From assembly GCF_035626535.1 (NCBI RefSeq), contig NZ_DASPNO010000053.1, positions 12,994 to 76,993 of the forward strand: 64,000 nucleotides of DNA, in the 5' to 3' direction. The number at the start of each line of letters is the position of its first letter. Positions within the stretch are counted from its first letter, which is position 1. Below, one piece after another: positions 8,380 through 33,748 of this stretch. This DNA is from Brevundimonas sp. Its GTDB lineage: Bacteria > Pseudomonadota > Alphaproteobacteria > Caulobacterales > Caulobacteraceae. The notes under the pieces are model-generated. The model did not search any database, was not told where the DNA came from, and saw nothing but the letters and a program-made list of their open reading frames with translations. The position numbers were made by a program, and so were the translations under genes.

Positions 8380-8420
8380 TCCCGCCCGGCAGACGGGTCG
8401 GCGGAACGCCCCCGTAGCGG

Positions 8421-8813: not shown

Positions 8814-8880
8814 ACAGGTCTCCTTGGGGCGACCTTGGCCGAAAGAGCCCCGGCGAGGCAAGAGCGGTCAGCCGCGTATC

Positions 8881-9150: not shown

Positions 9151-9218
9151 GATGCAGTCCCCCCTCGGGACGGTGGTTGCGGCTTGGCCGCGAACATTGG
9201 AATGATGGGATCGAGCGC

Positions 9219-9647: not shown

Positions 9648-9666
9648 GCCGGCTCCCAGACCCGCC

Positions 9667-9996: not shown

Positions 9997-10019
9997 AATC
10001 TGGTTCCTAACGCTGGTGA

Positions 10020-11222: not shown

Positions 11223-11225
11223 CGC

Positions 11226-13907: not shown

Positions 13908-13938
13908 GCGACGGCAGCGCGATCGGACCGGTCGCCGG

Positions 13939-17014: not shown

Positions 17015-18194
17015 CGGCGTCTCCCACAGCGAGCAAACCCTGGAACACCATCATGGTGATCAGTCCGACCATGGCGCCGACGACGATGATGACCAGAGGC
17101 GTGAGAACGGACAGCAGCCGTTCGATCGCTTCCTGGGCGCGAGCGCCCAGCAGCGCGGCGCCGTCGTTCAGAGCCGCGCTCACCTGCCCGGAGTGTTCGC
17201 CCATCAGGACATAGTGGATCAGGTCGGGGGGACAGGCGGGGATGCGCCGCAGCACCTCCGACAGTCGCACGCCTTCCATCAGACGCTCGTCCTGCGCCGC
17301 AAGGGCGCGGCCGAGCGAGCTTATGCTCACCGGCTCGCGGGCCAGCCGCCAGGCCGGCGCGAGGGGAACGCCGGCGTGGAGCATGACGGCGAGGCGGGCG
17401 GCGAGATTGGCGAAGACGAAGTCGCGCAGCGGCGAGCGCTTGCCGCGCATCAGCAGGCGGGCGACCCCATCGCCGGCCGAGCGCCGCACGGGCGCGAACA
17501 GCGTCATCGCGACGGCCAGACCGCCAGTCGCCGCGGCCAGAATGGGCAGCAACACCCGCACGATGACCCCGAAGGTCAGCACGGCCTGGGTCTGGGCCGG
17601 AATGTCGCCGCCCATGCCCTCGAACGCCGGCTCCAGGGAGGGGAGCACGGCGTAGGCGTAGATGGCGATCGAGCCGAGGGCGACGAGGATGACGAAGGCG
17701 GGGTAGAGGCACAGGGTGATCAGCCGCTTCTTCAGCTGATCGGCGGCGGCGAGCGACCGCGCTCCGGCGGCGAGCACCTCGCTCTGGCGACCGGAGGCCT
17801 CGCCGCCCCGGGCCAGGGCCTGCAGGAACCGGGCGGGCCCGCCGTCCGCGGCCTCGAGCGCGCGGGACAGGGGTTCGCCGGCGATCAATCGCTGTCGCAC
17901 CTCGCGGGCGATCGCGCTCATGCGTGGGGTTTCCCGCGTCTCCAGCAGGGCCAAGGCCTGGGCCAGCGCCATGCCGCTGGTCATCAGCTGGGCCAGGTCG
18001 CGGCCGAACCGCGCCGCCTCGGCGTCGGTCAGGCGCAACCCACCCCGCTGCTGCAGCAGGGTCGGCTGGATGGTGAGCGGGTGAAGGCGCGCCTCCACCA
18101 GACGATCGCGCAGGGCGGCCGCGCCCGGCGCATAACTGACCCCGCGCAGGCGGCGTCCGTCCGGGCCGAGCGCGGTATAGCGAAAGGCCTTCAT
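17004..18194 (-). CDS. gspF: T2SS inner membrane platform protein
   Basis: MKAFRYTALGPDGRRLRG, LAQLMTSGMAL, GEASG, LYPAF, GEHSG, LTPLVIIVVG. Confidence 0.92.
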   Translation of the reverse strand: MKAFRYTALGPDGRRLRGVSYAPGAAALRDRLVEARLHPLTIQPTLLQQRGGLRLTDAEAARFGRDLAQLMTSGMALAQALALLETRETPRMSAIAREVRQRLIAGEPLSRALEAADGGPARFLQALARGGEASGRQSEVLAAGARSLAAADQLKKRLITLCLYPAFVILVALGSIAIYAYAVLPSLEPAFEGMGGDIPAQTQAVLTFGVIVRVLLPILAAATGGLAVAMTLFAPVRRSAGDGVARLLMRGKRSPLRDFVFANLAARLAVMLHAGVPLAPAWRLAREPVSISSLGRALAAQDERLMEGVRLSEVLRRIPACPPDLIHYVLMGEHSGQVSAALNDGAALLGARAQEAIERLLSVLTPLVIIVVGAMVGLITMMVFQGLLAVGDAVAS

Positions 18195-19888
18195 CGGTCG
18201 GCGACGCGCCAGGCGTCGCCCCAGTCGAGCAGACCTTCCGCCGATTGTTCGAGCGCGTCCTGTCGCAAGGTGGCGTAGCCGGGCTGGTCGACCAGGTGTC
18301 GGCGCAGGATCGAGGCGTGGGCGCCCGCGCCGATCAACTCGCCCAGTTCGGGCGTGCAGACCATGAGTTCGCTCACCGCCCTCCGGCCGCGGCGCCCGGC
18401 CCCGCCGCAGGCGGGACAACCCTGCGCCCGTCCCACCAAGGACGGCCGCAGGGACAATCCGGCCTCACCCAGGGCGGCGGTTTCATCGGCGTCCAGCGGG
18501 CTGGTCGTCTTGCAGGCCTGGCAGAGCTGGGCCACGAGGCGTTGCGCCATGACCCCGATCAGGGCGTCGCCGAGCAGATAGCGCTCGACCCCCATGTCGA
18601 TGAGCCGCGACGGCGTGGTGGCCGCATCGTTGGTGTGCACGGTGGCGAGCACCAGATGGCCGGTCAGACTCGCTTGCACGGCCAGGCGTGCGGTTTCCGT
18701 GTCGCGGATCTCGCCGACCAGGATGACGTCGGGGTCGTGACGCAGAAAGGACCGCAGGGCGGTCGAGAAGGTGAAGCCGGCCGCCTCATTGACTTGGCTC
18801 TGCAGGATGTCCTCGAAGACGTATTCGACCGGATCCTCGACGGTGAGGATCTTGTTCCGGGCCGAGGCCAGTTGGCGCAACCCAGCGTAGAGGGTGGTCG
18901 TCTTGCCGCTGCCGGTGGGGCCGGTGACCAGCAACAGGCCGTGGCCGCGCATAAGGAGCTGGCTAAGGCCGGCGGCGACCGGGAGCCGCAGGCCAAGCCG
19001 CTCAAGGGAATAGTCGACGTCGCGCCGGGTGAGCAGGCGAACGACAAGGGATTCGCCGAACACCGTCGGCGCCGTCGAGATGCGGACATCGACCGGGACG
19101 CCGCGGACATTGATCGTGGTGCGCCCGTCCTGTGGGGCGCGGCGCTCGGCGACATCGAGGTCGGAGAGGACCTTGATCCGGGCGATCAGGGCCGGCCCGA
19201 TGTCGACGCCGAGCCGTTCCTGATCCTGCAAGGCGCCGTCGATCCTGAAGCGCACCCGGGTGTGGTCGCTCTTCTGCTCGACATGCACGTCCGAGGCGTT
19301 GAGCAGGAAGGCGCGCTCGAGGATCTGTTCGGAGAGACGAACGACCGGGGCGTCCCGGGCAATGTCCTTCAGCCGCTCGGCGTCATCCAGCCAGGTGGCC
19401 GCGGCGGCGGCCGGCCGCGCGGTCTCGGCGGCGGGTTCGGCCACGTCCTGCACGCGCCGCCAAGCGCTGAGCGTGATGGTGCGCACGGGGATGTCGCGGC
19501 CGAGCGCGAAGCGCAGCGCCTCGCGGGTGGTTTCGTCCCCGGGGTCGACCAGGCCGAGGCACCAGCCGCCCTCTTCGTCGGACATGGCGACGGCATAGCG
19601 ATCCTGCAGGAACCGCACGCTGAGACCCGGCAACTCCAGCCGCTCGATCGGAACGCCGTCGGGCCAACGCGGCGCGTCATGCAGGGCGCTGCAGGCCTCG
19701 GCGATCGCCTCTTCGGTGGCCAGGCCGAGCAGGCTCAAGGCCACGGCCAGCGGCTGACCCGAACTGGCGCTGGCGCGCTGGGCGCGGGCGAGGGCGCTGC
19801 CGCCCAACTGAAGGGCCTCGGCCAGGACCGACCGGGTGTCGGCGGGCGCCGGCAGCTCGAACTCGTCGACAGGTGTAGGTCTAACCAT
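18191..19888 (-). CDS. gspE: T2SS ATPase
   Basis: ASDVHVE, RFRIDG, QDGR, TGPTGSGKTTTLY, TVEDPVEY, LRHDPDVILVGEIRD, LTGHLVLATVHTN, CxxC motifs. Confidence 0.95.
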   Translation of the reverse strand: MVRPTPVDEFELPAPADTRSVLAEALQLGGSALARAQRASASSGQPLAVALSLLGLATEEAIAEACSALHDAPRWPDGVPIERLELPGLSVRFLQDRYAVAMSDEEGGWCLGLVDPGDETTREALRFALGRDIPVRTITLSAWRRVQDVAEPAAETARPAAAAATWLDDAERLKDIARDAPVVRLSEQILERAFLLNASDVHVEQKSDHTRVRFRIDGALQDQERLGVDIGPALIARIKVLSDLDVAERRAPQDGRTTINVRGVPVDVRISTAPTVFGESLVVRLLTRRDVDYSLERLGLRLPVAAGLSQLLMRGHGLLLVTGPTGSGKTTTLYAGLRQLASARNKILTVEDPVEYVFEDILQSQVNEAAGFTFSTALRSFLRHDPDVILVGEIRDTETARLAVQASLTGHLVLATVHTNDAATTPSRLIDMGVERYLLGDALIGVMAQRLVAQLCQACKTTSPLDADETAALGEAGLSLRPSLVGRAQGCPACGGAGRRGRRAVSELMVCTPELGELIGAGAHASILRRHLVDQPGYATLRQDALEQSAEGLLDWGDAWRVADR

Positions 19889-19961
19889 ATGAAACGCCGT
19901 GGACTCGGCTCCGCTCCCCCCTATAGTCGATCATGAGTAGCGTGTTGGTTCGGGGGGAGCC

Positions 19962-20420
19962 ATGGAGAAATCAGCCGAGGGCGCGAGACGAACCGCGCGC
20001 ATCCGCCGGGCGGGCTACACCCTCACCGAAATGCTGGTGGTACTGGTCATCATCGGCCTGATCAGCGCCATCGTCGTGCCCCAGACCCTCGGACAGATGG
20101 ACCGCGCCAAGGTACGGGCCGCCCGCCTGAAGATGGAGAGCGTGGCCGCCGCGCTGGAGATGTATTCCGCCGACTTGGCGCGCTATCCGACCCGCGAGGA
20201 GGGGCTGGACGCCCTCATGGATCCGCCCGAGGGCGTCGCCGAATGGGCGGGCCCCTACCTGTCGGATCCCGCGCTGACCAAGGATCCGTGGGGTCGCGCC
20301 ATCGTCTATGCGCCGCCCGCCGCGGCGGGAGACCGGTTCACCCTGACCAGCTACGGCGCCGACGGCGCCCCCGGCGGCGCCGGTTTCAAGCGCGACATCG
20401 TCCTGGGAACGGCCCGATGA
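19962..20420 (+). CDS. gspG: Major pseudopilin
   Basis: AG|YTLTEMLVVLVIIGL, YPTREEGL, WAGPYL, DPWGRAIVY, SYGADG. Confidence 0.93.
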   Translation: MEKSAEGARRTARIRRAGYTLTEMLVVLVIIGLISAIVVPQTLGQMDRAKVRAARLKMESVAAALEMYSADLARYPTREEGLDALMDPPEGVAEWAGPYLSDPALTKDPWGRAIVYAPPAAAGDRFTLTSYGADGAPGGAGFKRDIVLGTAR

Positions 20421-22444
20421 AGATCGCCACGCGCGCCCTTGTCGCGGCCGGTCTCGGCTTGCTCGCCGCCTGCGAGACCCCGCGGAGCATCCGTCCGGAT
20501 CTGGCGGTCATTCCGCAAAGCCGCCCCGCCGCTCCCGCTTCCGTTCCCGATCCGGCCCAGACGCCGGAGACCGCCGATGACCTGGCCTGGCGGATCGAGA
20601 GCGAGGCGCGGGTGCCGGCGTCGCCGGCGGTTGAGCGTTCGCCCGTGCGGACCTTCAATGTCGTGTTCGATCAGGCGCCGGTCGCCGCCGTCGCCGACGC
20701 GATCCTGGGGCAGACCCTGCGGCGCTCCTTCCGCATCGACCCGTCGGTGCAGGGCGCCCTGACCCTCAGCCTGACAGGTCGCATGAGCGAGGCCGAGGCG
20801 CTCGCCAGCTTCGATCGCGCCCTTCGCAGCCTCAACGCCGCCCTTGTCGCCGAGGGAGGCGGCTACGCCATCGTGCCCGCCGCCCAGGCGTCGCGACTGA
20901 ACGCCCCGCCCGTCGTCGCCCGGGAAGGGGTCGACGCCTTGGCCGGTACGGCCGTCTATCAGGCGAGATCGATCGGCGCGGCCGAGATCGCCCGCCTGCT
21001 GGAGCCGCTGGCCGGGGAGGGGGCCACCGTGCGGGCCGATCCCGCCCGCGAGCAGCTGTACATTTCCGGAGACCCGACCACGGTGAACGCCCTGGTGCGC
21101 ACCGCGCGGTCGCTCGACGTGGACTGGCTCGAAGGCAAAAGCCTGCAGTTCTTTCCCGTCCGGCACGCCACCCCGGCCGACATCGCCTCCGAAATCCGTC
21201 AGGTCTTCGGGGGGGCGGACGGCCCTATGGGCAACCAGATCCAGTTCATCGAGCTCGGTCGGCTGAACGGCTTGTTGGTCATCGCCCGCTCGACCGCCGG
21301 GCTCGATCGGGCGGCGGAATGGATCCAGCGCTTCGACCGCGCGCCGCCGCCGGCCGCGCGCCGTCTGCGTTCGATCCCGTTGGCCAACCTGGAGGCCGAC
21401 CAGTTCGTCACCACCCTGTCGTCTCTGCTCGGGACGGGGACGGCGGGCGCACCTGGGGCCACGGCGGCAGGGGAGTCCCCGTCCGCGGCGACGGCGCCCG
21501 CGTCCGCGGAGGGTTCGTCTCCCCTCGCCGGGTCGTCAGGCGCGGGGATGGCCGGGGCCCTGCGGCTGACCGCGGACGCGCGAACCAATTCCCTGATCCT
21601 GCTCGCAGACGACGCGGAATACCGCAACGTGCTGGACATTGTGCGCGAGCTCGACGCGCCGCCGCCGCAGGTGCTCATCGAGGCGACGATCGCCGAGGTG
21701 ACGCTGAACGACCGGCTGCGCTTTGGCGTGCAATGGTTCTTTGACGACGGCGACCTGACCGGCGGCTTCTCCTCGGGCGCCAATGATGACGCCGCGCCCG
21801 GCTTCCCTGGCCTCTCCGTCCGCTACCTGAACCTCGACGTTCGCGCCGTGCTGAACGCGCTCTCGACCGTCACCGACGTGCAGCTGATCTCCACGCCGCG
21901 CATCCTGGTGCTCTCCAACGAAAGCGCCGAACTGCAGGTCGGGGACCAGGTGCCGATCATCACTCAGACGGCGGTCGGGTTGAACGACGACAGCCGCATC
22001 GTCAACAGCGTGCAGTACCGGGACACCGGGGTGGTCCTGTCGGTGACGCCGCGGGTGACCGAGAGCGGGCGCATGTTCATCCAGATCGAACAGGAAGTGA
22101 GCGAGGTGTCCGGCACGACCTCGTCGGACATCGACTCGCCGACCATCCAGCAGCGGCGCTTGAGCACCCGCATCCAGGTCGAGGACGGGCAGCTCGTCGT
22201 GCTCGGTGGACTCCTTCGCTCCAGCCGCAGCCTGGGCGACACCGGCGTGCCGTACCTGAGCCGCATCCCGGCGCTCGGCGCGCTGTTCCGCTCGCGCGAC
22301 ACGACCGAGCGGCAGACCGAGCTGGTGATGTTCCTGCGTCCGACGGTGATCCGCGCCCGTTCGGACATCGACGCGGTCTCCGCTGAGATGGTGGCGCGGC
22401 TGCAGGCGCTGGGACTACCGGTTGAGACGCCCGTCGAGCCCTGA
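20417..22444 (+). CDS. gspD: T2SS secretin with lipoprotein signal
   Basis: MKIATRALVAAGLGLLAAC; TNSLIL, QVLIEATIAEV, QVGDQVPI, QYRDTGVVLSVTPRV, GVPYLSRIPALGALF. Confidence 0.93.
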   Translation: MKIATRALVAAGLGLLAACETPRSIRPDLAVIPQSRPAAPASVPDPAQTPETADDLAWRIESEARVPASPAVERSPVRTFNVVFDQAPVAAVADAILGQTLRRSFRIDPSVQGALTLSLTGRMSEAEALASFDRALRSLNAALVAEGGGYAIVPAAQASRLNAPPVVAREGVDALAGTAVYQARSIGAAEIARLLEPLAGEGATVRADPAREQLYISGDPTTVNALVRTARSLDVDWLEGKSLQFFPVRHATPADIASEIRQVFGGADGPMGNQIQFIELGRLNGLLVIARSTAGLDRAAEWIQRFDRAPPPAARRLRSIPLANLEADQFVTTLSSLLGTGTAGAPGATAAGESPSAATAPASAEGSSPLAGSSGAGMAGALRLTADARTNSLILLADDAEYRNVLDIVRELDAPPPQVLIEATIAEVTLNDRLRFGVQWFFDDGDLTGGFSSGANDDAAPGFPGLSVRYLNLDVRAVLNALSTVTDVQLISTPRILVLSNESAELQVGDQVPIITQTAVGLNDDSRIVNSVQYRDTGVVLSVTPRVTESGRMFIQIEQEVSEVSGTTSSDIDSPTIQQRRLSTRIQVEDGQLVVLGGLLRSSRSLGDTGVPYLSRIPALGALFRSRDTTERQTELVMFLRPTVIRARSDIDAVSAEMVARLQALGLPVETPVEP

Positions 22445-23087
22445 CCCGAGAGGGCGGGAGGGCTATGTCTCCCTCCTAGCGATCTCGTTTGCCACCGGCC
22501 TCGCCCTGTTCGGCGGCGCGCTGGCCGTCGGGCTGCAGGCCTATCTCGCCGCCGCGGCCGACGAGGCACGCGAGATCCGAACCCGCATCGCCCTGGAGAG
22601 CGCCGTCGCCGCCGCGCTCGGTCGCCTCACCGCCGGCCAGTCTGCGGCGCTCGAGCAGCCGGCGGAGGCCTCGGGCAAGCCCGACATCCTGATCTCGCTT
22701 GTGAGCGCCAAGGCCGATTCGGCGGCGGACGATCTCGAAGTCGTACGGGCAGCCTTGGCGCAAGCGGGTGTGGAAATGACTGGATCGGTCGACCCGAGCG
22801 AGACGCCGGATATGGCCTCACTCTCGAGGCGGCTACGGTTGAACGCGGCCGCCGAGGATTGCCTGCGACGCGCCCTGACCTATGGCCGTGCCCCGGCGGT
22901 GCGGGCCGAGGCCGTCGCCATCTCCGCCATCCAGGGCGTCTCCGCCGGAGATCAGCTCGATGTCCGGGCCCGTCTGCAAACCGAGGATGGCGAGCGGGCG
23001 CTGTGGGTCCGGGCCCGCTTCACGGGCCGGGCCGATGGCTGGGTGGTGCATGACTACCGGCGGCTGACCGGGCCGTTCACCTGCTAA
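22422..23087 (+). CDS. GspK-like minor pseudopilin (short)
   Basis: REG|YVSLLAISF (no Glu5, as in GspK), ALESAVAAAL. Confidence 0.6.
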   Translation: MRRPSSPDPRGREGYVSLLAISFATGLALFGGALAVGLQAYLAAAADEAREIRTRIALESAVAAALGRLTAGQSAALEQPAEASGKPDILISLVSAKADSAADDLEVVRAALAQAGVEMTGSVDPSETPDMASLSRRLRLNAAAEDCLRRALTYGRAPAVRAEAVAISAIQGVSAGDQLDVRARLQTEDGERALWVRARFTGRADGWVVHDYRRLTGPFTC

Positions 23088-23090
23088 TCG

Positions 23091-23894
23091 TCAGGGGCCG
23101 ACCTCGCACTGGTTCTCGCTGGTCGGAACGCATTCCTCGCCCAGGCCGACCTCGACGGTGACCAGGCCGGTGTCGGTCCCGCCGTGGCCGTCGCTGACGG
23201 TGTAGGTGAACGAATAGGAGCCGGCCGTGGCCGGCGCCATGTAATCCACATAGCCGCCGCCGCTGGGTATGGTGGCGGACCCGCCGGTCACGTTCGACAC
23301 GCCGGTGACGGTCAGGGTGTGGCCGTTGGCGTCGGTGTCGTTCGAGAGGACGAAGATCGACTGGGACAGGCTGACCGTGGTGCTGGCGGTGTCGTCGATG
23401 GCAACCGGCGCCGCGTTGGCCGACGATACGGTCACCGTCACGGTCGCCGTCGCCGTGCCGCCCGCGTTGTCCGAAATCGTGTAGGTGAAGTTATAGGTCC
23501 CGACCGCGGCCGGCGCCGTATAGCGGACATAGGTCTGGCCGCCCTGGATGACGACGCTTCCGCCGCTGGGCGTCCCGACCTGGATGACCGTCAAGCTGTT
23601 GCCGTCGGGATCGCTGTCGTTGGCGCGAACGGAAATGTTGACGCTGGCGGAGGCGCTGACGGAGGCCGTGTCGTTGACGGCGACCGGCGGCGAATTGGGC
23701 GGTTGCGAGGTGACGATCTGGGTGCGGTTGCCGGCGGCGTCGTAGCGATACTGGATGACGACGCCGTTGGAATAGATGGCTTTGATCAGCCGCCCCGAGC
23801 TGTCGTAAACGTATTGCACATCGGCTGAGGCCGGCACCGCGGCGAACAAGGCCAAAGCCGTGACGCCAACCTTGAGGAGTGATCGCAGGGTCAT
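23091..23894 (-). CDS. Secreted protein: signal peptide + YD-repeat hairpin + two cadherin/Ig-like (Big_9-type) domains
   Basis: ALFAAVPASA|D; YVYDSSGRL...YRYDAAGNRT; twice PVA.DD...NDxDxxG...FTYT.SD.xGG. Confidence 0.85.
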   Translation of the reverse strand: MTLRSLLKVGVTALALFAAVPASADVQYVYDSSGRLIKAIYSNGVVIQYRYDAAGNRTQIVTSQPPNSPPVAVNDTASVSASASVNISVRANDSDPDGNSLTVIQVGTPSGGSVVIQGGQTYVRYTAPAAVGTYNFTYTISDNAGGTATATVTVTVSSANAAPVAIDDTASTTVSLSQSIFVLSNDTDANGHTLTVTGVSNVTGGSATIPSGGGYVDYMAPATAGSYSFTYTVSDGHGGTDTGLVTVEVGLGEECVPTSENQCEVGP

Positions 23895-24253
23895 TGCGTG
23901 GCCGGCTCCGAACGGTTGGCCGCCGCCAGGGTCGGCGAGAGGTCGGCCTGCATGGCTGCCGCCGCGGACTGACTGGCGCGCCACTCCTGATCGGTCGGCA
24001 GGCGGGGCGGCCCGGGCTGGCGATCCGGCTGAAGCACGACCCAGAGAGAGCCGGCGATCAGAACGGTCAAGGCTCCAGCGACGCCGGCGCGCGGCCAGGA
24101 AACGGCCGCCGCGCGGTCCCTCCAGCTGACGGCGCCGGCCCAGCGATTCCCGTCGAACGTCAGGCGGGCTTCATGTTCGAGCCAGGCGACCCCGCTGCGG
24201 ATTCCGCGCCCGGTTCCGTCCAGCCACTGTGCGGCCCGCGCCCGAATGTTCAC
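23891..24253 (-). CDS. Hypothetical single-TM protein
   Basis: AGVAGALTVLIAGSLWVVL; ATGA overlap with the downstream YD/Ig gene. Confidence 0.6.
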   Translation of the reverse strand: MNIRARAAQWLDGTGRGIRSGVAWLEHEARLTFDGNRWAGAVSWRDRAAAVSWPRAGVAGALTVLIAGSLWVVLQPDRQPGPPRLPTDQEWRASQSAAAAMQADLSPTLAAANRSEPATQ

Positions 24254-24396
24254 TCACGCCTCCCCCGAAACAGGAAGACTAAAGCCCAGCTTCCCACAGG
24301 CGTAAAGCGCCATCCAACCCATGGTGGAGATTTCACCTTTTCATCCCGCCTTCGGCGTGGTCCACCTAAGCGGCGCAATCACGTCGGGGGACGGCT

Positions 24397-27300
24397 GTGA
24401 AGTTTTGGGTGGATCGCATCAGGCCTGCGGGCCGCGTCCTGACCGGCAAGGGCGCCGTTTTCGCCACGCTGGCCCTGGCGGCTGTCGCGATCGTCGCGTC
24501 ACTGGCGCTGCTGAAGCCCTTCGCTTGGGCGCAGACCTGGCCCGCCTACTACAACTCCGCCCAGACCCCGTCCGATCTGCCCGGCATGCGGCTCTCGCTG
24601 CAGTACAACCTGGTCTCCCCGACCAGCAGCGATCTCGTCACCGTTTACGGCACGCCTGCCTCTCCCGCAGCGCCTGCGCCCAGCGCTCGTATCGTCGCCC
24701 TGGCGCGCTCGCTGGAGAACGACCCGGACCGGATTTACCAATTCGTCCACAACAGCATCCTGTTCGAGCCGCAGTTCGGGCTGCACAAGGGGGCCGACGG
24801 GGTGCTGCTGGACGGATCGGGCGGATCCTTCGATCAGGCCCAGCTCATGGTCGAGCTGCTTCGGACGTCGAACATCCAGGCCCGCTATGTGTTCGGCACG
24901 GTCAACCTCACCGGCGCGGATGCCAAGTCGATCTTGCGGGTCGATACCGGCCGTCAGGCCTGCATCCTGCTCGCCACAGCGGGTACGCCCGCGACGATCA
25001 ACAACGGGACGACCTCGTGCGCCAATCTGGGCGCGACCCTATCCGACGTGCAGATGCTGCACGTCTGGGTCGAGGCGTTTATCGATGACCAGTGGTACGC
25101 CTTCGATCCGTCGCTGAAGACGACAACCAAAATCACCGGCGTCGATTTGTGGGCAGCGGCCGACACGAGTGCGTCGGCGGCCTGGAGCAACGTCTCCTCG
25201 GGGGTATCTGTCAGCGGCGGCGACCTGAACGGCGTCAACGCGACCCACATCGAGAACGATATGGTCGCCTACGCTATGGCGCTGCAGACCAACTTGATCA
25301 ACAACCACACGGAAAAGTCGCTGAAGCAGCTGACCGGCGGCTGGGAGATCGTCCGCACCGAGGCGGCCCCGCGCAATATCACCCTGCCGCGGCAGGCCAG
25401 CGTCTCCACCCGCTGGACCGGCGACGTGCCGACGCCCTATCGGGCCACCCTGCGGCTGCAGGCGGCGGGCTTCGATCATGTCTTCGACCTGCCGAGCATC
25501 TACGGTTGGCGAACCCAGGCGCAGTTTCGAGACGGCGTTCTACGGGTTGCCGTCCGCAAGAAGGAACACCTCGACGCTGATGCCGCGGCCTACTTCGCCG
25601 ATGAGCTGGATGGTGGTCTGTCGATCAATCCGTGCGACGGTGTTCACGTCTTTTGCGCCAACGTCCCAGGACAGCATCCGCCTGACGGGCGCCGGCTCAC
25701 CATGACCATCGACCACCCGTACGCCGCGCGCAAGACTGGGGCTCCGACAGCAAACCTGGGCACCTTCGGCGATGAAACCGTCGTTAAGCAACTGCAGGCG
25801 GGCAAGCGCGCTGACATACTCCTGCGCACAGCGGGGGGCAACGGCGGCCGCAAGGCCGCCTGGGCCGCCGCGTACGACCCTATCCAGCAGCATCGTATCG
25901 TCCCCGCCGGGCGCGACTTTGACCAGTGCTACCTGAAGCCCCCGGTCTGGAACCCGGATCTTGAGCGTTGGGAGTGGCACGTAGACAGCCCGAGCGATTG
26001 CGATGAGGCGACCGGCGTGGATTGGCGTTATTGGGTGCCGGACAGCGCCTATGGAAACGGTCCCTTCGCTACGGGAGAGGTCGCCGTCGCCGAGATGGGA
26101 ACCCGCAAGGACTCCCTGCTCAACGGCTGGACCGATCTGTTCGACGGGACCGTCGCTATCCTGGAGCCGCTGTCCGGCGCGCGCATTTTTCACCAGCATT
26201 CCATCGGCGTGGCGCTCACGACCGGTGACAATGTCCTGGATATCGAGACGTCGGTCGGCATCGCCGCCAATGGCGCCGATCAGCCGCATCATATTCTGTC
26301 GGCCCTTGCGGCCCTGGCGGTGACGGAGGAAGCGCTGGCGCTGAGCCAAAGCGGGATGGAGCGTCCGTCCTTTAAGGGCTCGCCTTTCCAGGTCATCACT
26401 GCGCCACGGCGTCTGGCGACCGGCACGGGCCTGAAAGTTCTGACGGCGCCTGGTTCGACCACGAGCCTTCCAGCAGACGTAAATGCCGACACGAAGGACA
26501 GGATCGAGGCCTATCTAACCAAGGGCTACTCCGTCGTGGCGACCACGACGGGCGGCGTGAATGCCTTCCTGGCGCGGCGCAACGATGGGTCGGAGCAGGC
26601 GTGGATCATCCGCTCTTCGGCCGAAGAGACCGGTCATGCCAATCCATTGATCGCTTTCCGTAAGGGCGCGGAGCAGGAGACCCCCAATCCGGTCGATTAT
26701 CTCGGCAAGGCGGAGTCGCGGCGGATAGCGGCCAATGTCGCCGGCTCCCTGCTCGGCGCCGTGGACCTTCGAACCGGCACACTCTCCTTCAGCGAGGGAG
26801 CCGAACTCTCGATCGGTCAGGGCGACTTCCCCTACAGCCTCAGTTTCTCGCGCAGCTATGTCTCAACCGGGCCCATGGAGGGAACAAGCGGCTTGGGCAT
26901 GGGCTGGACACACAATTGGGAGAGTTCGGTCAGCCACGCCATGGATGTCGGCACCCTGTTGCCTCAGGCCGGGACGGAGACTGCGGCGCCTATGCTGATG
27001 GCGGCGATGATCGCCCTGGAAGCGGGGCGAGCCGACACCCTCCAGGCCGCCGTTGTTTCGGGGATCGCCCTGGATTTCCTGCAGGAGCAGGTCGCCACCA
27101 ATATCGTCACCGTGAGCGGCGGGGGTCAGTCCAGCCGCTTCGTGCGCATGGTCGACGGGAGCTGGCGCAATCCGGCCTCACCGACGGAATCCATCGCGCC
27201 CGCCAGCGCGCCGTTCATCGGCGCCGATACGCGCGAGATCAACTGGACCCTGGCCGACGGGTCGGTGATGGCGTTCCGCGATGTCGAGAACCCCAGCACC

Positions 27301-30300
27301 TTGTCCACCTCCACCAACCTTCATGGCGTCGCGACATCCTGGACCTTCCCCACGGGCGTCGTGATCACCCTGACCTACGGCGGGGGAACGGACACCAATA
27401 CGCCGGCGCTGGAGTCGGTCTCGAACAATCTGGGGGCGACGCTCACCTTCACCCATACCCAGACGCCGACCCAGGCGATGATCGAACACTGCCCAACGAT
27501 GGGGGACCCGCAAGCGTGTCATGAGGCGCTGAGCGGCGGCGGCCGTCTGACCAAAGTCCAGGCGGGGCCTGACGAGATCAACTTCGAACACCTGACCTAC
27601 TGCCCGCAGTTCGTCAATTTCTGCGCTTTCCAGCTGTACAGCGCGCAACGGCCCGGACTGCGCAAGCGGATCTATACGTACGGCTTCCCCACGGGCGGCT
27701 TGGCGACGGCGGTCTTTCCGATGGATTATCAGCAGGTCCTGACCCAAGTGAGTGATGAAGGCGTCACGACGCCGCGAGCGCGGTTCGACTGGCGCGCCGT
27801 CGGCGGCCAAGTTGCGCCTTATGTGGCCGAGGCCTTCGACGCCCAGAACCGCAAGACGGTCTACTATCCCTCGACCTTCACCTACTCCGCGGCCAAGGAC
27901 GCCACGGACGCGGTGATCCGGCAGACCTACGACGACGATGGGCGTCTGGTGACGGCGGCGGACGCCATGGGCCGGACCTCCCGCGCCCGCTACGACGGGG
28001 CCGGCCGGTCGAGCTGGATGCAGACGCCTTGGGGCGACACCACCGAGTTCACCTACGACAGGCTCGGCAACCTCAGAGAACGCAAACAGTCGCCGCTCGC
28101 CAACTGCGCCACCGGTCTGACTGTCCAGCAGCAGGCTTGGTGGTGCCAGGAGATCGTCGTCAAGGCGGAGTACGCCAACACGACGTGGCCGACCCGGCCG
28201 ACCAAAATCGTCCTGCCCGCGACCGAGGCGGATCCCCAGGTCCGCGAGTGGGAGATGGAGTACAACTCCCAAGGGCTGGTGACCCTGATCAGGGGTCCGA
28301 GGGTCGAGAACGGGCTTAACAACAATGTCCTCGAGCACCCGACCTGGGCGACCGGCTATGACAATCGGGGTCGGCCTGTGTGGACGCAGGATCCAACTGG
28401 CATCCGGTCAACGATGGCGTACGGTGAGTCCACGATGCCGGCTTTCTGCCTGACCTCCACGACCATGTCGGCTCAGCCCGCTGGCGTGGCCGGGATGATC
28501 ACGAGGATGGAATGCGACGTGGTCGGCAACGTCACCAAGGTGACCGACGCCCGCAACAACGTCACCACATCGACCTATGATAACCTGCGCCGCAAGCGGA
28601 CCGAAGACGGGCCGGCCAGCACGGCCATCAAGACCATCTGGAGCTACAATATCGATGGGGACCTGGACCTGGTGCGGCAGTGGGACTCGACCGGCAACAC
28701 GTGGCGTGACACCATCACCGCCTATTCGGCGACGCACAAGCCTCTGACCGTGACAGACCCCGACGGCGATCTGACCCGGACCTGCTACGACGCCGTGGAC
28801 CGCCCGGTGACCGTGATCGACGGCGAACGCCGGGCCACGCACACCGTCTATAACGCAGCCGGTCAGCCGACCGAAATCCATCGCTTCCAAAGGGCGGCGG
28901 CGGGCTCCTGTGGGTTCTCGACCGAGCTGCCGCAGGACGCCGGCTTCACCGAGACCCGCTGGCGGCGCTTTCAATACAATGCCGGAGGCTTGCAGAGCGC
29001 GGAAATCGACGCCCGAGGCAACGTCACCCAGCAGCAGTACGACGGCGTCGGCCGGCCGATTCGAACCATCTACCCGAACACCCTGCAGGCGTGGACGGCG
29101 ATGGACGAGCGGGGGCAGGTGGTAGTGCGCAAGACCCGCGCCAATCACTGGGCGAGCGTCTTCTACGACGGCATGGGCCGGGACTTCCACGTGCGGGAGT
29201 ACGCCAACAGCGAAACCGCCTACAAGTACAGGGGCCGCAACAGCCGGGCGAACTACGACCTGGCTGGCCGACCTGTCTGGCGGGCGGTGTCGAACCAGAC
29301 CACGCAGACCAATACCTACGATGAGGCGCTGAACCGCGATGTCCGAACCTATAGCTATGACCAAGCCGGACGGCTGACCTCCGAACAGTGGCGGCCGGAG
29401 GGCGTGGCGGGGATCAGCTTCACCACCGGGTACGGCTACGACACTGTCAGCAACCGGACCTCGATCACTTGGCCGGGCGCCTGGACAGCCGCTTACGCCT
29501 ACGACGCGGCCAATCGGGTCAAGTCGGTGAACTTCCCGGGACCCGCAGGCGCGCCGCAAGTCGTGGCCCTGGACCACGACTCTCTCAGCCGCCTCACTAG
29601 AATGGATCGGCCGGGTGCGGCCGCCGACACCACCTACACCTATGATGCGGATAGCGATCTTGCGGTGCTGAGCCATGGCTTTGTCGCAGGAACAGGGCCG
29701 GGGGCGGTGAGCTTCTCCTACGGCCACGACGCGGCGGGCAAGATTACCTCGATTGGGATTGATCAACCGGCCTTCGAGTGGATGCCGACGCTGACATACG
29801 CCCGCAGTTACGGGGCGGCGAATGTGATGAACCAGGTAGCGTCCGAGACGGATAGTGTTACATCGAGGGCGCTATCCTTCGACGGCAACGGCAACCTGTC
29901 CCAAGAGGTGCGCACGCCCGTCGTCGGCGGGACCCCGGTCACCTGGACCTATCACTGGACCTACGGCAACCGCTTGGGTGTGGTCACCAACAACGCCGCG
30001 GTTTCGCCGCTGACTGCGAGTTACCATTATGACTCCGATGATCGCCGCACCAAGAAGGTGGTCAACGGAGTTACCCGGCGGATGATGTGGTCGGGGATGG
30101 ATGAACTAGCGGAGTATGACGTTAACGGCGACTTGCTCCGACGCTTTATCCCCGATGGCACGGGCGCGATGGACGCACGGCTGGCGACGGTGACACCGAC
30201 AGGGGACGTCTACTGGCATCACACCGACCACCAAGGGTCGGTGATCGCCACGTCGAACAGCGCCGGGGAGACGGTCGGTGTGGCCAGCTATTCGCCTTAC

Positions 30301-31086
30301 GGAGAGTTCGGGGGCGATGCGACGACGACGCCGCAGCACAGTCCGTTCGGTTATGCCGGGCGGCAGTACGATGAGGAGACAGGGCTGTATCAGTACCGGG
30401 CGCGATACTATTCTCCGCGCTTGGGACAGTTCCTGTCTAGTGATCCGATTGGGACTAAGGACGATCCGAACCTGTATCTCTACGTCGCAAACGATCCGGT
30501 GAACCTGACCGATCCGACCGGGATGGAATGCAAGAATAACACTGAGGCAGGGACAACGAACTGCGTCACCAAAGACTACAATGTCACATTCAAGACGACG
30601 GATAGTTTTCCTGGGACTGACGCCTCGCGAAGCGACTTCCACTATTATGACGAAACCGCGCAGTCACACTTGGGCGTCGATGCGACCAGGAATTGGGTTC
30701 AGCAGAACCCCACGCCGGGCGATCCTAGCCCTGCGACTCCGGGCGGTACTAGAAATGATGCCACACCAGTGATTGGCGGACTGCCCGGGGATATCAGTCC
30801 CGTATCGTCGATCACGACTACCAATACGGTCAGTGGAAATCCTGTGGTCGTGAACGTTACCTTGCCGGGCCATCCTCTTTTCCCTGGTATAGTCGTTCGG
30901 GAGGTGGTGCCTAACGCCGACGGCACTTCAACCATTCATAATCGGGGTGAGGGCAATGGCGACCTGCAGCGACCGGGCGCTCCTTTTGCCGGGGCAATCA
31001 ACGGCGTGTGGAGAGGTCAGCGTCCGCCTCCGCCGACTCGGCCCTCTGGCCCAACGTGTTCTTACACATTGATGGGATGCCGATGA
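24397..31086 (+). CDS. RHS/YD-repeat polymorphic toxin with Sec-like signal, transglutaminase-like domain, DUF6531-like domain and unknown C-terminal domain
   Basis: N-terminal hydrophobic stretch ending AWA|Q; DQAQLMVELLR..ARYVFG..HVWVE..FDP; GLGMGWTHNWE; many YD repeats; YRARYYSPRLGQFLSSDPIG...NDPVNLTDPTG. Confidence 0.95.
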   Translation: MKFWVDRIRPAGRVLTGKGAVFATLALAAVAIVASLALLKPFAWAQTWPAYYNSAQTPSDLPGMRLSLQYNLVSPTSSDLVTVYGTPASPAAPAPSARIVALARSLENDPDRIYQFVHNSILFEPQFGLHKGADGVLLDGSGGSFDQAQLMVELLRTSNIQARYVFGTVNLTGADAKSILRVDTGRQACILLATAGTPATINNGTTSCANLGATLSDVQMLHVWVEAFIDDQWYAFDPSLKTTTKITGVDLWAAADTSASAAWSNVSSGVSVSGGDLNGVNATHIENDMVAYAMALQTNLINNHTEKSLKQLTGGWEIVRTEAAPRNITLPRQASVSTRWTGDVPTPYRATLRLQAAGFDHVFDLPSIYGWRTQAQFRDGVLRVAVRKKEHLDADAAAYFADELDGGLSINPCDGVHVFCANVPGQHPPDGRRLTMTIDHPYAARKTGAPTANLGTFGDETVVKQLQAGKRADILLRTAGGNGGRKAAWAAAYDPIQQHRIVPAGRDFDQCYLKPPVWNPDLERWEWHVDSPSDCDEATGVDWRYWVPDSAYGNGPFATGEVAVAEMGTRKDSLLNGWTDLFDGTVAILEPLSGARIFHQHSIGVALTTGDNVLDIETSVGIAANGADQPHHILSALAALAVTEEALALSQSGMERPSFKGSPFQVITAPRRLATGTGLKVLTAPGSTTSLPADVNADTKDRIEAYLTKGYSVVATTTGGVNAFLARRNDGSEQAWIIRSSAEETGHANPLIAFRKGAEQETPNPVDYLGKAESRRIAANVAGSLLGAVDLRTGTLSFSEGAELSIGQGDFPYSLSFSRSYVSTGPMEGTSGLGMGWTHNWESSVSHAMDVGTLLPQAGTETAAPMLMAAMIALEAGRADTLQAAVVSGIALDFLQEQVATNIVTVSGGGQSSRFVRMVDGSWRNPASPTESIAPASAPFIGADTREINWTLADGSVMAFRDVENPSTLSTSTNLHGVATSWTFPTGVVITLTYGGGTDTNTPALESVSNNLGATLTFTHTQTPTQAMIEHCPTMGDPQACHEALSGGGRLTKVQAGPDEINFEHLTYCPQFVNFCAFQLYSAQRPGLRKRIYTYGFPTGGLATAVFPMDYQQVLTQVSDEGVTTPRARFDWRAVGGQVAPYVAEAFDAQNRKTVYYPSTFTYSAAKDATDAVIRQTYDDDGRLVTAADAMGRTSRARYDGAGRSSWMQTPWGDTTEFTYDRLGNLRERKQSPLANCATGLTVQQQAWWCQEIVVKAEYANTTWPTRPTKIVLPATEADPQVREWEMEYNSQGLVTLIRGPRVENGLNNNVLEHPTWATGYDNRGRPVWTQDPTGIRSTMAYGESTMPAFCLTSTTMSAQPAGVAGMITRMECDVVGNVTKVTDARNNVTTSTYDNLRRKRTEDGPASTAIKTIWSYNIDGDLDLVRQWDSTGNTWRDTITAYSATHKPLTVTDPDGDLTRTCYDAVDRPVTVIDGERRATHTVYNAAGQPTEIHRFQRAAAGSCGFSTELPQDAGFTETRWRRFQYNAGGLQSAEIDARGNVTQQQYDGVGRPIRTIYPNTLQAWTAMDERGQVVVRKTRANHWASVFYDGMGRDFHVREYANSETAYKYRGRNSRANYDLAGRPVWRAVSNQTTQTNTYDEALNRDVRTYSYDQAGRLTSEQWRPEGVAGISFTTGYGYDTVSNRTSITWPGAWTAAYAYDAANRVKSVNFPGPAGAPQVVALDHDSLSRLTRMDRPGAAADTTYTYDADSDLAVLSHGFVAGTGPGAVSFSYGHDAAGKITSIGIDQPAFEWMPTLTYARSYGAANVMNQVASETDSVTSRALSFDGNGNLSQEVRTPVVGGTPVTWTYHWTYGNRLGVVTNNAAVSPLTASYHYDSDDRRTKKVVNGVTRRMMWSGMDELAEYDVNGDLLRRFIPDGTGAMDARLATVTPTGDVYWHHTDHQGSVIATSNSAGETVGVASYSPYGEFGGDATTTPQHSPFGYAGRQYDEETGLYQYRARYYSPRLGQFLSSDPIGTKDDPNLYLYVANDPVNLTDPTGMECKNNTEAGTTNCVTKDYNVTFKTTDSFPGTDASRSDFHYYDETAQSHLGVDATRNWVQQNPTPGDPSPATPGGTRNDATPVIGGLPGDISPVSSITTTNTVSGNPVVVNVTLPGHPLFPGIVVREVVPNADGTSTIHNRGEGNGDLQRPGAPFAGAINGVWRGQRPPPPTRPSGPTCSYTLMGCR

Positions 31087-31490
31087 TGCACGGCTTTAAT
31101 ATTCGAGCTGGGTTGGCGTTTCTGATTGCACCAGTCGCTTTTGGAATTCTGGCTTTGTTAGTCGCAACGATTTCGGGCAACGCCTCTGAAGGGCTTTGGG
31201 CGCTGAGATTGTCAGCAATGCTCGGGTATCCAGTTGCGCTGCTAACCGGGCTTCCCGCGTATCTGTGGATGACCCAAAGGCGGTGGGTCGGCCTGCCTGC
31301 GTACCTCGGCTTGGCCGTAGTCTACGCGGTCGTCTTGTCGGTGTGGCTATTCCTTAGGCCGGCATTGATGAGGCCAGAACACCTAAATCTGAATGCTCTA
31401 GCGCTTCAAAGCGGAGCGGTGCTGATCGGATGTACCATCACCCTAGTGATATTCTGGCTGATCGCCCGGCCGGATAAAGGGGGTCGGTGA
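31083..31490 (+). CDS. Putative membrane immunity protein (about 4 TM)
   Basis: ATGA overlap with the RHS stop; hydrophobic throughout; lower GC, like the RHS tip. Confidence 0.7.
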   Translation: MMHGFNIRAGLAFLIAPVAFGILALLVATISGNASEGLWALRLSAMLGYPVALLTGLPAYLWMTQRRWVGLPAYLGLAVVYAVVLSVWLFLRPALMRPEHLNLNALALQSGAVLIGCTITLVIFWLIARPDKGGR

Positions 31491-31533
31491 GCGACCGAGT
31501 GCCGGATAAAGGGGGTCGGTGAGCGACCGAGTG
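31470..31533. repeat. Exact 32-bp tandem duplication
   Basis: ccggataaagggggtcggtgagcgaccgagtg at 31470-31501 and 31502-31533. Confidence 0.95.
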
Positions 31534-31595
31534 CAGGATAGGCTTCGCGCCGACATTGTCTGACAGCCTTGGCCGTAGCGGCACGCCGTTCCGGC

Positions 31596-31724
31596 TCAGC
31601 GCTCGTGGTGGTCGCGCGGCTTGGACAGGGCTTGGAGGAGCGCCTTGAGGGCGTAGAGGCCGGCGATGCCGGCTCCGACGACGGCCAGGCCGATGACGAA
31701 GTTGATCGTGAATGCATCGGCCAT
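31596..31724 (-). CDS. Small membrane protein (42 aa), below the ORF-track threshold
   Basis: MADAFTINFVIGLAVVGAGIAGLYALKALLQALSKPRDHHER; strongly GC3-biased codons. Confidence 0.6.
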   Translation of the reverse strand: MADAFTINFVIGLAVVGAGIAGLYALKALLQALSKPRDHHER

Positions 31725-31954
31725 GGTTCGGTCCGCTTCGGGGTCCGGGCGCCGAGGCGCCCCTGTCGCGGTCAAGGATAGCCCAGCGGCTGGTCGTCGG
31801 CGAGGTTCGGCCGAGCGCCTAGAGGGAGTGAAGGCCCCGCCCTAGATCCCGCTCACCCGCGTTGGAATCGAGCGCTCCTCACTATCGCAATCCGAGCACT
31901 CGCACCCCGCGCTGTGTACAGAATCCAGAGCTAAGAAGCTGTCAGGTGATTTAA

Positions 31955-32257
31955 ATGTTTAAAGATGTGACGACGGTAGGAATTATTTCATTCCTAGTGG
32001 CTTGTTCACCGCAAGAGCCGGATGCACAACCGACACCTTCAACGGAGAAGGATGCCGAGTGCCGGGCTATATGGTTGCAACTCACTCCTGAGCAGAGAGT
32101 GGCATTCGGCAGTGAAGCCAACTTCGAACGCAAGTGTGTGGCTTCAACTTGGGTGGTCCAGTGTCAGGGGGGATCTATTGAAGGCGGGGCCGAATTGCAT
32201 CGCCTCTGTAGATCTGATGGTGGTGTCGATCGCACCTTCAAGGGCGAGGACGGGTGA
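31955..32257 (+). CDS. Small Cys-rich lipoprotein
   Basis: Lipobox-like FLVAC at residue 17 followed by four more Cys; lower GC. Confidence 0.6.
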   Translation: MFKDVTTVGIISFLVACSPQEPDAQPTPSTEKDAECRAIWLQLTPEQRVAFGSEANFERKCVASTWVVQCQGGSIEGGAELHRLCRSDGGVDRTFKGEDG

Positions 32258-32514
32258 GTGCTGATCCACACACGCTGCAATAGTCGGGCTCACCTTTCCA
32301 AGTCTCACCAAGTACCGCCGCGCCGCCGACAGCACGGCTGTGTGGCACCGTCCGCCTCAAGGGAAACCTGGCTTCGATTATTCACAATAGTTTATGCAAA
32401 GTAGGGATTCGACTCCGGTGGGGCGAATGTCTGCACTTCATCGCTGAGCTCGGTCGGTCCTCCTGTCACAAGAGCAGTCTGCAGGAAGACTTGGGGGCGA
32501 GGAGTGCTGACGCC

Positions 32515-32703
32515 CTAGCTTGGATCGATCGCATAAACCCAAACCGCAACTGTCGACGGAATTGAAAGCCGGCCGGTTTCCCACTCAAACACGGTCGAAC
32601 GGCTACGATTGAAGATTGTCCCAAGTTCACTCTGAGAGAGGCCCAAGCCCTTGCGCCGACGCCGCAGTTGAACTGGCAAGGACTCACCCTGCCAACGCTC
32701 CAT
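32515..32703 (-). CDS. Small XRE-family HTH protein (62 aa)
   Basis: LRRRRKGLGLSQSELGTIFNRSRSTVFEWETGRLSIP; AGGTGAT SD 10 nt before the ATG. Confidence 0.7.
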   Translation of the reverse strand: MERWQGESLPVQLRRRRKGLGLSQSELGTIFNRSRSTVFEWETGRLSIPSTVAVWVYAIDPS

Positions 32704-33748
32704 GTCGGGCCGGATCACCTGCAAAGTGATCGGCAATTCTCCCCGCAAAAAGGGAAACGCAACTCGCCCTTTGCGGCAGCCAGTCGGCGAGGTGTCCCGG
32801 CGGCGTCTCCCACGTCGGGCGGCTGATGACTCCGAGACGCCAGCCTCGGGACCACAGCCGGAAGCCGAGATCGGCGTCCTCGGTGACGTTGAAGCTGTCC
32901 CAGCCGCCGATCTCGCGCAGCACGTCGACGCGGAAGTGGTTGCTTGTGCCGCCAAGGGGGAAGGGCAGACCGAGGTGGGCCATGCCGGGGAGGGCGGTCT
33001 CGAACAGGCTGGCGTATTCGGCGGCGAACTGGCGATCGAGGAACGGCGAGGCTTCTACCCCTCGGCGTCCCCGCCGGATCCGCAGCGGGGCCTGCAGGCA
33101 CGCCAGCCGTCCATCCGCATCCGCGGCGAACTGCGTGGCCGCCTCCCGCAGCTGCAACGGGTCGGGCTCGTCCTCGGCGTCGTAGACGGTGAGCAAATCG
33201 CCGGTGACATGGGGCAGGGCGCAGTTGAGGGCGCGGGGCTTGGTCCGGGGGCGGCCCGGCGGAGCGACGAAGACCTCCAGCCACGCCGGCCGAGCCGCGG
33301 CCAGCGCCGCGGCGATGGTTTGATGATCGTCGGCCTCGAGGATCAGCAGCCCCTGCAGACGATCCGTCGGATAGTCGAGCCGCGCCAGTCGCCCAACCAG
33401 CTGGTCCATTACCTCCGCCTCATCGTGAAGCGCCACAAGAACGGTGTAGGGCGGAAGCGCGTCGGGCGGCTGATCCGCGTGACCGGCGGGCGGGGAGCTC
33501 AGCACTACGAGCAGGACCCGCCACACGGAGACGGTCAGGAAGGTCGTCGCGGCGCCCGCCACCGCCACGGGTCCGATCACGTCGGGGCGAAACGAGAGCA
33601 GGACGCCCACCGCTGCGACTGCGCCGGACAGCGCCAGCCACTGGAAGCCGGAGAGACCGCGCCACATGGCGCTGCTTAACCGGGGCGGCCCGTGGCGCGC
33701 TGTGTCGCGCCCGCGATCACGACGATCGCTGATCCCCGCCCTGCCCAT
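32684..33748 (-). pseudogene. GT2 (cellulose-synthase-like) glycosyltransferase, 3'-truncated
   Basis: ALHDEAEV, TKPRALN, YDAED, GGTSNHF, NVTEDADLG; ends at WLPQR with the QxxRW motif incomplete and no downstream TM helices. Confidence 0.75.
32743..32776. other. Candidate att site (imperfect inverted repeat)
   Basis: ccgcaaaaaggg-aaacgcaactcg-ccctttgcgg located at the point where the GT2 reading frame loses family similarity. Confidence 0.55.

Follow-up and report, generated by a model that had tools for sequence, protein, structure and literature searches.

A non-phage island of Brevundimonas interrupts a GT2 synthase gene inside QxxRW, very probably by way of an attachment site within its own serine integrase gene

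Elements that split a gene and restore it when they leave are known, to our knowledge, mostly from phages of Firmicutes and from cyanobacteria. The closest system to the one described here is SPbeta of Bacillus subtilis, with the integrase SprA and the directionality factor SprB; two reports describe that this large serine recombinase element splits the polysaccharide gene spsM, that its precise excision rebuilds the gene (PMC4191935), and that its attP is symmetric around a central dinucleotide (PMC5499854). For the SSV1-type archaeal integrases and the mycobacteriophage BPs, attP is reported to lie inside a gene of the element, and integration truncates or partitions the product (PMC8371274, PMC4557955). 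Here we analyzed a stretch of 64,000 nt (the window; positions 12,994 to 76,993 of contig NZ_DASPNO010000053.1, called C53 below) from a Brevundimonas assembly of soil origin (GCF_035626535.1, called G000), in which the end of an accessory island interrupts a synthase-type glycosyltransferase gene of family GT2. We consider it very probable that this island, at least 45.7 kb long, was placed between the R and the RW of the QxxRW motif by conservative site-specific recombination, with an island-borne large serine recombinase (LSR-1) as the catalyst and with attP inside the LSR-1 gene itself.

The assembly is a metagenome bin of 2.74 Mb in 93 contigs with a completeness of 92%. A protein search for relatives of its GT2 gene gave 6916 at E ≤ 0.001 among 8000 scored candidates; most of the 120 listed are 440–505 aa long and belong to Brevundimonas and related Caulobacterales. 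The open reading frame (ORF) in the window (32684..33748, minus strand) encodes 354 aa. It matches Pfam Glyco_tranf_2_3 (1.6e-17) and contains a GT-A domain with the DxD and TED motifs, and its match to Glyco_trans_2_3 is limited to positions 3–137 of 198, the first two thirds of the profile. The fragment is 84% identical to residues 1–328 of a 496-aa relative (P0002). It ends in ...TWETPPGHLADWLPQR and continues for 27 more codons and a stop: after ...DWLPQR the translation is ASCVSLFAGRIADHFAGDPARHGALAG, and the stop lies 27 codons past the R. Most of the listed relatives read on at this point as ...WLPQR(T/A)RWLKGYMQTWGVH... (RWLKGYMQTW) for about 170 residues. In the alignment with BcsA (4hg6/4p00), QRGRW is paired with QRARW of the GT2 family, TEDAE with TEDAD, and VFDADH with YDAED. 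The window ORF lacks a complete QxxRW, having Q-R-A and then foreign sequence. Its C-terminal transmembrane part, whose membrane character was judged by eye, is also absent; residues 329–496 of P0002 are present in the relatives and have no match in the assembly. The DNA matches of three intact loci (L002, L006, and L010) to the window end at 32772, 32769, and 32765, respectively. Because homology ends at 32766/32765 and QRGRW of BcsA aligns there, the gene is cut inside QxxRW. The interruption proposed in the initial annotation is thus borne out by Pfam coverage, the BcsA alignment, the relatives, and the DNA of intact loci. A motif census by regular expression covered 80 related loci and found TED in 71, with no match in nine. 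QxxRW is kept in 69 of the 71, and the other two (L001 and L003) break at the same point; therefore, the objection that intact relatives might also end here does not hold. Two short relatives, P0079 (354 aa) and P0113 (325 aa), pass QRTRWLKGY before their sequence changes and stops, and they represent a different break, likely a frameshift, and not the island junction.

The full-length relative P0002 is not an orthologue of CelA or PgaC, with NCBIfam scores of 39.7 against a cutoff of 699 and 36.8 against 422, respectively. Some sources attach the name XagB to relatives. For the ORFs between the GT2 gene and dnaE in another Brevundimonas genome (G001, see below), Pfam returned no match and named no partner protein. 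What is known of BcsA provides the basis for predicting the effect of the break. A GT2 enzyme without the W of QxxRW and without the C-terminal membrane part would be able neither to polymerize nor to export its product, and the glycan would be off for as long as the island is integrated.

The same break is found in two other Brevundimonas genomes, G001 and G002. Three clusters of relatives (P0003, P0005, and P0059) carry it together with a homologous tail, two of them in G002 and G001 (loci L001 and L003). In both genomes, a separate contig (G001:C61:75331-75930, minus strand, and G002:C100:829-1404, respectively) holds the GT2 3' half, which adjoins the opposite end of an island of about 70 kb and lies beside a large serine recombinase of 497 aa. 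These orphan halves begin exactly at RWLKGYMQ and stay open for 171–172 codons to the usual end of the family. The halves of G001 and G002 abut between QR and (T)RW, and G000 shows the 5' half only. On the gene strand, attB reads ...CAGAGA-AC-GCG(A/G)TGG, attL reads ...CAGAGA-AC-GAGTTGCGT, and attR reads ...ACGCAACTC-AC-GCGATGG. The junctions are base-precise and conservative, without loss or duplication, and the sites share just 2–3 nt. At attR of G001 and G002, the island closes with 9 nt that are the reverse complement of the P' arm beside the break. The two arms match over nine contiguous positions, so that a perfect 9-nt inverted repeat flanks the dinucleotide, with symmetry at 16 of 30 positions. 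A palindromic attP can be inferred from these sequences. Since the junction is base-precise, the site identity is 2–3 nt, and such an attP can be deduced, integration of the large serine recombinase type is supported; the comparison of attL, attR, and attB gives a 2-nt crossover and little identity between attB and the reconstructed attP. The type of integration named in the initial annotation therefore agrees with the precise junction. A scan of 185,579 species genomes for the attR pattern returned G001 and G002 only, and a scan of metagenome contigs for attL gave one match (L303), with a junction of the G001 type.

LSR-1 of G001 and G002 adjoins attR and reads across it. The G001 protein has the domains of a large serine recombinase (Resolvase, 3.9e-33; Recombinase, 9.1e-14), and the zinc ribbon is weak in its relatives; the window holds the C-terminal 83 codons only. 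Among the best 80 loci of the LSR-1 family, whose tails were examined, only two (those of G001 and G002) abut a GT2 3' half. The island-side DNA at the junction is conserved over about 200 nt in all three genomes. The conserved frame is offset by one base from the GT2 tail and reads RVAFPFL...(20 codons)...MERWQG... and then an Xre-type helix-turn-helix (HTH) domain. The frame of the GT2 tail is poorly conserved in P0003 and P0005, whereas the offset frame is conserved. Three of the four differences between G000 and G001 in the first eight codons of the fragment are synonymous, and the ratio of nonsynonymous to synonymous divergence (dN/dS) of the HTH part is 0.2–0.3 between genomes.

Seven relatives of LSR-1 (601–663 aa) are contiguous and read ...ATR.H(G/R) RVAFLPF..., followed by one or two HTH domains (Pfam scan of four of the seven), and two further, incomplete members of the family look like them. 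The 83-codon fragment of the window aligns to the C-terminal HTH domain of these relatives, and its start coincides with the end of LSR-1 of G001. The contiguous members have, at this position of their ORFs, an imperfect palindrome of the type GGCAACGCAAC...GCGTTGCC, which is symmetric at 7–10 of 12 positions and related to the arms found here. The frames also fit: attR reads ...AAC TCA CGC GAT GGC TGA, the attL fragment reads CGA GTT GCG..., and the joined site would read through. In other family members, three of three tested, the integrase reading frame gives way at this position to the 3' part of a Mg-chelatase/ComM-type gene. Because contiguous and split members exist, the fragment aligns to the contiguous ones, the palindrome occupies the same ORF position, the frame continues across the predicted joined site, and the ComM-type switches occur at the same point, attP is placed inside the integrase gene. 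Consequently, integration splits both the integrase and its target, and the tail of the GT2 ORF is an out-of-frame linker. The initial annotation was right that the frame stops 27 codons after WLPQR, but the tail is not unrelated sequence; it is the C-terminal part of the integrase read out of frame. At L227, L235, and L249, the recombinase ORF runs in frame into positions 155–207 of the Mg_chelatase profile and then into Mg_chelatase_C. About 20 other family members have a target-derived tail like ...ATRPQGF(I/M)AATSW.RAG.

In the mechanism we propose, LSR-1 would recombine attP, in its own gene, with attB, in the GT2 gene, at the central dinucleotide. Integration would strip the GT2 protein of RW and of a membrane C-terminus of about 170 aa. 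It would also strip LSR-1 of its C-terminal Xre-type HTH, which would remain at attL, immediately after the GT2 fragment and pointing the same way (32766..32515). Excision (attL × attR) would then rebuild both reading frames. LSR-1 presumably catalyzes both reactions, attP × attB and attL × attR, and excision would still be expected to occur in the G000 strain. The best NCBIfam matches of LSR-1 are CcrB (122 bits) and CcrC (108 bits), both with cutoffs of 900, and XisF scores 90 bits against a cutoff of 375; because these scores are far below the cutoffs, LSR-1 lies outside these subfamilies. Between G001 and G002, LSR-1 has a synonymous divergence (dS) of 0.61 and a dN/dS of 0.037. The orphan GT2 3' halves have a dN/dS of 0.205, compared with 0.12–0.25 for intact pairs. 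Selection and similar divergence fit a long association with continuing excision and re-integration, and they fit repeated recent integrations as well. A search of part of the literature, without supplements, found no published account of attP inside a serine-integrase gene or of such an island in Brevundimonas.

Thirteen public sequencing runs contain the DNA around the break, and contigs of four runs were aligned to positions 31000–35000. In X1, the probable source sample of G000, a 1454-nt contig bridges the attL junction (31505–32958). X2 and X3 are, like X1, soil metagenome runs of 2018. A contig of X2 (4590 nt, depth 134) equals the window over 32766–35000 and a contig of X3 (1790 nt, depth 70) over 32766–34044, each with 0 differences. 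To the left of 32766, the reverse complement of both contigs encodes RWLKGYMQT. Because these contigs match without a difference and then enter RWLKGYMQT, the identical allele exists uninterrupted, and since the match ends there, the exchange point in the G000 lineage is fixed at the GC dinucleotide 32767/32766. Neither X2 nor X3 has contig cover over 31804–32741, which we did not use as evidence that the island is absent from these samples. The three runs may derive from one sampling campaign, and their sequences reveal a presence/absence polymorphism of the island, perhaps within a single population. The uncut allele could be the product of excision or belong to a lineage that never received the island. 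Uncut copies of the gene in other soil samples make it probable that the insertion is reversible.

The initial annotation expected that the island's far end would carry the missing 3' half. This half is there in G001 and G002. In G000, tblastn with a full-length GT2 relative matched residues 1–328 only, the best stray match having E = 0.5; therefore, the 3' half is absent from this assembly. However, this absence carries no weight because flanking essential genes are missing with it. Downstream of the 3' half, G001 shares synteny with 12 intact relatives (82–91% identity in 11, lower in L026), and this DNA carries the genes for DnaE, a class II tRNA synthetase (ProS-like), EF-Ts, and ribosomal protein S2. 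In the G000 assembly, dnaE, proS, tsf, and rpsB have no orthologue and are matched only by 25%-identical paralogues. Contig C20 of G000 starts, at base 2, exactly where synteny resumes 16.5 kb further on. Since these essential neighbors are missing too, the lack of the 3' half and of attR is attributed to an assembly gap and not to loss. Beside the GT2 gene, at least 16 kb of core DNA are thus unassembled or unbinned in G000. At the left end of C53, outside the window, repeats of about 50 nt occur at 101–149, 452–500, 963–1012, and 1384–1432 and match many places in other genomes of this genus; they probably belong to a small dispersed repeat at which the assembly broke.

An inverted repeat at the break had been noted as att-like. 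The segments 32743–32754 and 32767–32776 do form such a repeat, but they pair only with a 2-nt bulge. An ungapped repeat finder did not list the pair and listed four other short pairs within 300 nt. The RNA fold around the repeat is no better than that of shuffled sequences (z = 0.09). As DNA, a hairpin of the 34-nt span has −8.2 kcal/mol, a value reached by 10% of the 34-nt windows of the whole stretch and by 1.5% of those with similar G+C, and the hairpin at the same junction is weaker in two relatives (−4.9 and −7.3 kcal/mol). One apparently compensatory change from A/T to G/C between genomes was seen in the likeness of the B arm to the outer P' arm. We set this likeness aside because its spacing does not fit the half-sites of serine integrases. 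The repeat therefore exists, but it is weak and is not the att palindrome, which consists of the arm at 32757–32765 and its partner at the other end of the island.

The features of the locus are summarized in Table 1. From 32765 to the left end of C53, all 45.7 kb are accessory DNA. The island is colinear with that of G001 from 32765 to about 1864, with 81–87% nucleotide identity where conserved, compared with 84% for the chromosomal flank. Thirty further genomes, 18 from this genus, gave only short matches of the paralogue type to C53:1-9500. G+C falls to 0.59–0.60 over 30001–33000. The island also encodes a ParB-like protein and a HerA/FtsK-like ATPase. A 160-aa membrane ORF (31008–31490) next to the RHS-repeat gene may encode the immunity protein of the RHS protein. 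The cargo conserved in G001 (13939–31490) includes a Big_9/cadherin-repeat protein, and an RHS toxin together with a type II secretion/type IV pilus-like apparatus is an unusual pairing. A PHROGs scan of 17 island ORFs found no phage structural genes, and the island is not phage-like.

Table 1. Features around the interrupted GT2 gene and in the island (window coordinates; strand left empty where none is assigned).
Feature	Position	Strand	Basis or remark
Synthase-type GT2 gene, 5' part, codons 1–327, end ...DWLPQR	32768..33748	-	ORF, Pfam GT2 families, BcsA alignment
27 codons and stop added to the GT2 fragment; integrase linker/HTH region read out of frame	32684..32767	-	Translation; frame conservation
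Predicted crossover dinucleotide	32766..32767		GC on gene strand here, AC in G001/G002; last position common to attL and intact allele
P' arm of attachment site, ACGCAACTC on plus strand	32757..32765		Only exact copy in window
Severed C-terminal part of the island's LSR-1: 83 codons, linker (RVAFPFL...) and Xre-type HTH	32515..32766	-	HTH_31 28.4 bits against cutoff 27; internal ATG (MERWQG) at 32706
Imperfect inverted repeat (B arm pairing with outer P' arm)	32743..32776		Bulged, marginal
Island, accessory DNA	1..32765		Continues 12,993 nt beyond window to C53 left end; tblastx/blastn colinearity
RHS-repeat protein, 2229 aa, N-terminal transglutaminase-like domain, variable C-terminal end	24397..31086	+	Pfam RHS_repeat, Transglut_core, DUF6531
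Type II secretion/type IV pilus-like genes: prepilin peptidase, GspF-like, GspE-like ATPase, secretin	13939..22444		Pfam; 81% nucleotide identity to G001 island
LSR-2, second large serine recombinase, 588 aa	1774..3540	-	Pfam Resolvase, Recombinase, Zn_ribbon_recom; 23% identical to LSR-1

A second recombinase, LSR-2, also lies in the island. The copies of LSR-2 and its homologue in G001 agree up to ...GAAGTCCCTGACGTCC(C/T)CGG and then diverge, and the site of LSR-2 seems to lie in its own 3' end too. Three direct copies of this 3' end (33–172 nt, 86–97% identical) bracket cassettes of 2–3 kb with low G+C, and inverted copies of the motif are found directly upstream of the LSR-2 start (3541–3565). 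These features involve window positions 1774–3565 and, to the left of the window, C53:9574-9781 and C53:12488-12836. The region looks like a tandem accretion at a site carried by the recombinase. One low-G+C cassette (0.55; 516–1841, plus strand), between two copies of the LSR-2 end, encodes a CD-NTase-like protein with SMODS and AGS_C domains, a CBASS-type signature. A word like GCAACTC about 40 nt past the LSR-2 end motif was considered as an attR relic and rejected, because the DNA around it is different among all copies and G001.

A rival candidate for the integration at the GT2 gene was LSR-2. It is the only complete serine recombinase in the window and has the orientation that LSR-1 has in G001. 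However, it is only 23% identical to LSR-1, its homologue in G001 is internal, about 30 kb from attR, and it has an end motif of its own, ...GAAGTCCCTGACGTCC..., after which its copies diverge; moreover, the ORF across the GT2 junction is one of the LSR-1 family. LSR-2 is therefore not regarded as the enzyme of the GT2 site, and that role is highly improbable for it. That the break is an artefact, a chimeric contig of a metagenome-assembled genome or a random rearrangement, could be suspected for a bin of 93 contigs, but this is hardly conceivable given the independent X1 contig across 31505–32958 and the junctions identical to the base in two other assemblies and one metagenome contig. In another reading, the G000 strain is a dead end, in which the far island end (the N-terminal part of LSR-1, attR, and the GT2 3' half) was deleted, leaving a permanent pseudogene and a fixed island. 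The 3' half and LSR-1 are absent from the assembly, the 30 kb between LSR-2 and LSR-1 of G001 have no counterpart in it, and the DNA to the left of LSR-2 is different accessory material. On the other hand, dnaE, proS, tsf, and rpsB, which lie downstream of the GT2 gene in G001 and the 12 intact relatives, are missing as well, and one unassembled stretch explains all of these absences; C20 starts where synteny resumes, the completeness is 92%, and the severed HTH fragment is an intact ORF. We judge such a loss to be improbable.

Integration by LSR-1 into its GT2 target, the reading that we prefer, could also be part of a regulated switch, in which a cue drives excision of the island and the restored GT2 gene switches on a surface or extracellular glycan, as in SPbeta/spsM. 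In the initial annotation, such a switch might also alter phage or toxin receptors. In G001 and G002, both GT2 halves have kept open reading frames under purifying selection, and conservation of the integrase is strong. The dS values of island and host are alike (0.61 against 0.51–0.52), which suggests a long association without gene decay. Among soil samples from one year, an identical allele is present both cut and uncut, and the HTH part of the integrase lies downstream of the GT2 promoter in the same orientation. However, purifying selection is explained equally well by recent or repeated integration into functional genes, presence/absence polymorphism indicates mobility and not regulation, metagenome contigs gave no attP match, and no recombination directionality factor was identified. 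A regulated switch is therefore possible but rather unlikely. An extended form, a double split-gene device, is more speculative: the demand for the glycan would drive the severed HTH from the synthase promoter, and the HTH, acting in trans on the integrase left truncated, would trigger excision and so rebuild both genes. We give it little credence, but if true, it would be a self-contained, reversible on/off switch for a glycan on an island bearing a toxin and a secretion apparatus.

Several observations weigh against integration by LSR-1 at an attP within its own gene. The lack of a directionality factor and of attP matches bears on it as on the switch; the pattern of 24 specified bases had 0 matches in metagenome contigs. 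The shorter 16-base palindrome had at least 121 unspecific matches in genome contigs, with none from Brevundimonas among the 80 listed, and it is too short as a pattern. The attR pattern occurs in just two of the species genomes scanned, a small sample. The contiguous relatives of LSR-1 lie on long contigs, and their internal palindrome is a putative attP. Only attL is seen in G000, where tblastn found neither the GT2 3' half nor the N-terminal part of LSR-1, and its far island end is extrapolated from the relatives. Finally, the central dinucleotide is AC in G001 and G002, but here, in attL and in the uncut allele of X2 and X3, it is GC, which is a palindrome. In the serine integrases that have been studied, a palindromic central dinucleotide would not set the polarity of recombination.

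The locus provides a base-precise example of a split gene in an alphaproteobacterium, in which a non-phage island with RHS and secretion genes hits the most conserved codons of a GT2 gene, and the cut and uncut states of one allele both exist in nature. The splitting of an integrase gene by its own attP is the more general point, since relatives of LSR-1 do likewise to ComM-type genes. It suggests that different forms of the integrase in the integrated and excised states are built into the element. If true, this would matter for designing serine-integrase tools and for understanding how directionality can be controlled in the absence of a classical directionality factor.

Compared with known systems, the locus shares with SPbeta/spsM a serine integrase, a polysaccharide gene as the target, and precise reconstitution. 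However, SPbeta is a phage of a Firmicute whose excision is tied to sporulation, and its att sites are reported to share a 16-bp core; here, a non-phage island resides in an alphaproteobacterium, and the sites share 2–3 nt. For SPbeta, sprA is not reported as split by attP, whereas the gene of LSR-1 is split. The target here is a catalytic motif, QxxRW, and SPbeta has the directionality factor SprB. Excision of the skin and fdxN elements is developmental and terminal. These elements, skin in sigK with SpoIVCA and the Anabaena fdxN element with XisF, are reported to be serine-recombinase elements that interrupt a gene and restore it on removal (PMC5025042), as proposed here. XisF is among the NCBIfam matches of LSR-1, but with a score so far below its cutoff, LSR-1 is not an XisF orthologue. 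SSV1 and BPs use tyrosine recombinases, and the gene cut in BPs is that of the repressor; here, a serine integrase loses its C-terminal HTH, and a host gene is split in the same event. The SCCmec-type cassettes, whose CcrA, CcrB, and CcrC include the best NCBIfam matches of LSR-1, are likewise islands moved into a conserved gene by large serine recombinases. Insertion of SCC at the 3' end leaves rlmH undestroyed, and the Brevundimonas island divides its target within the QxxRW codons.

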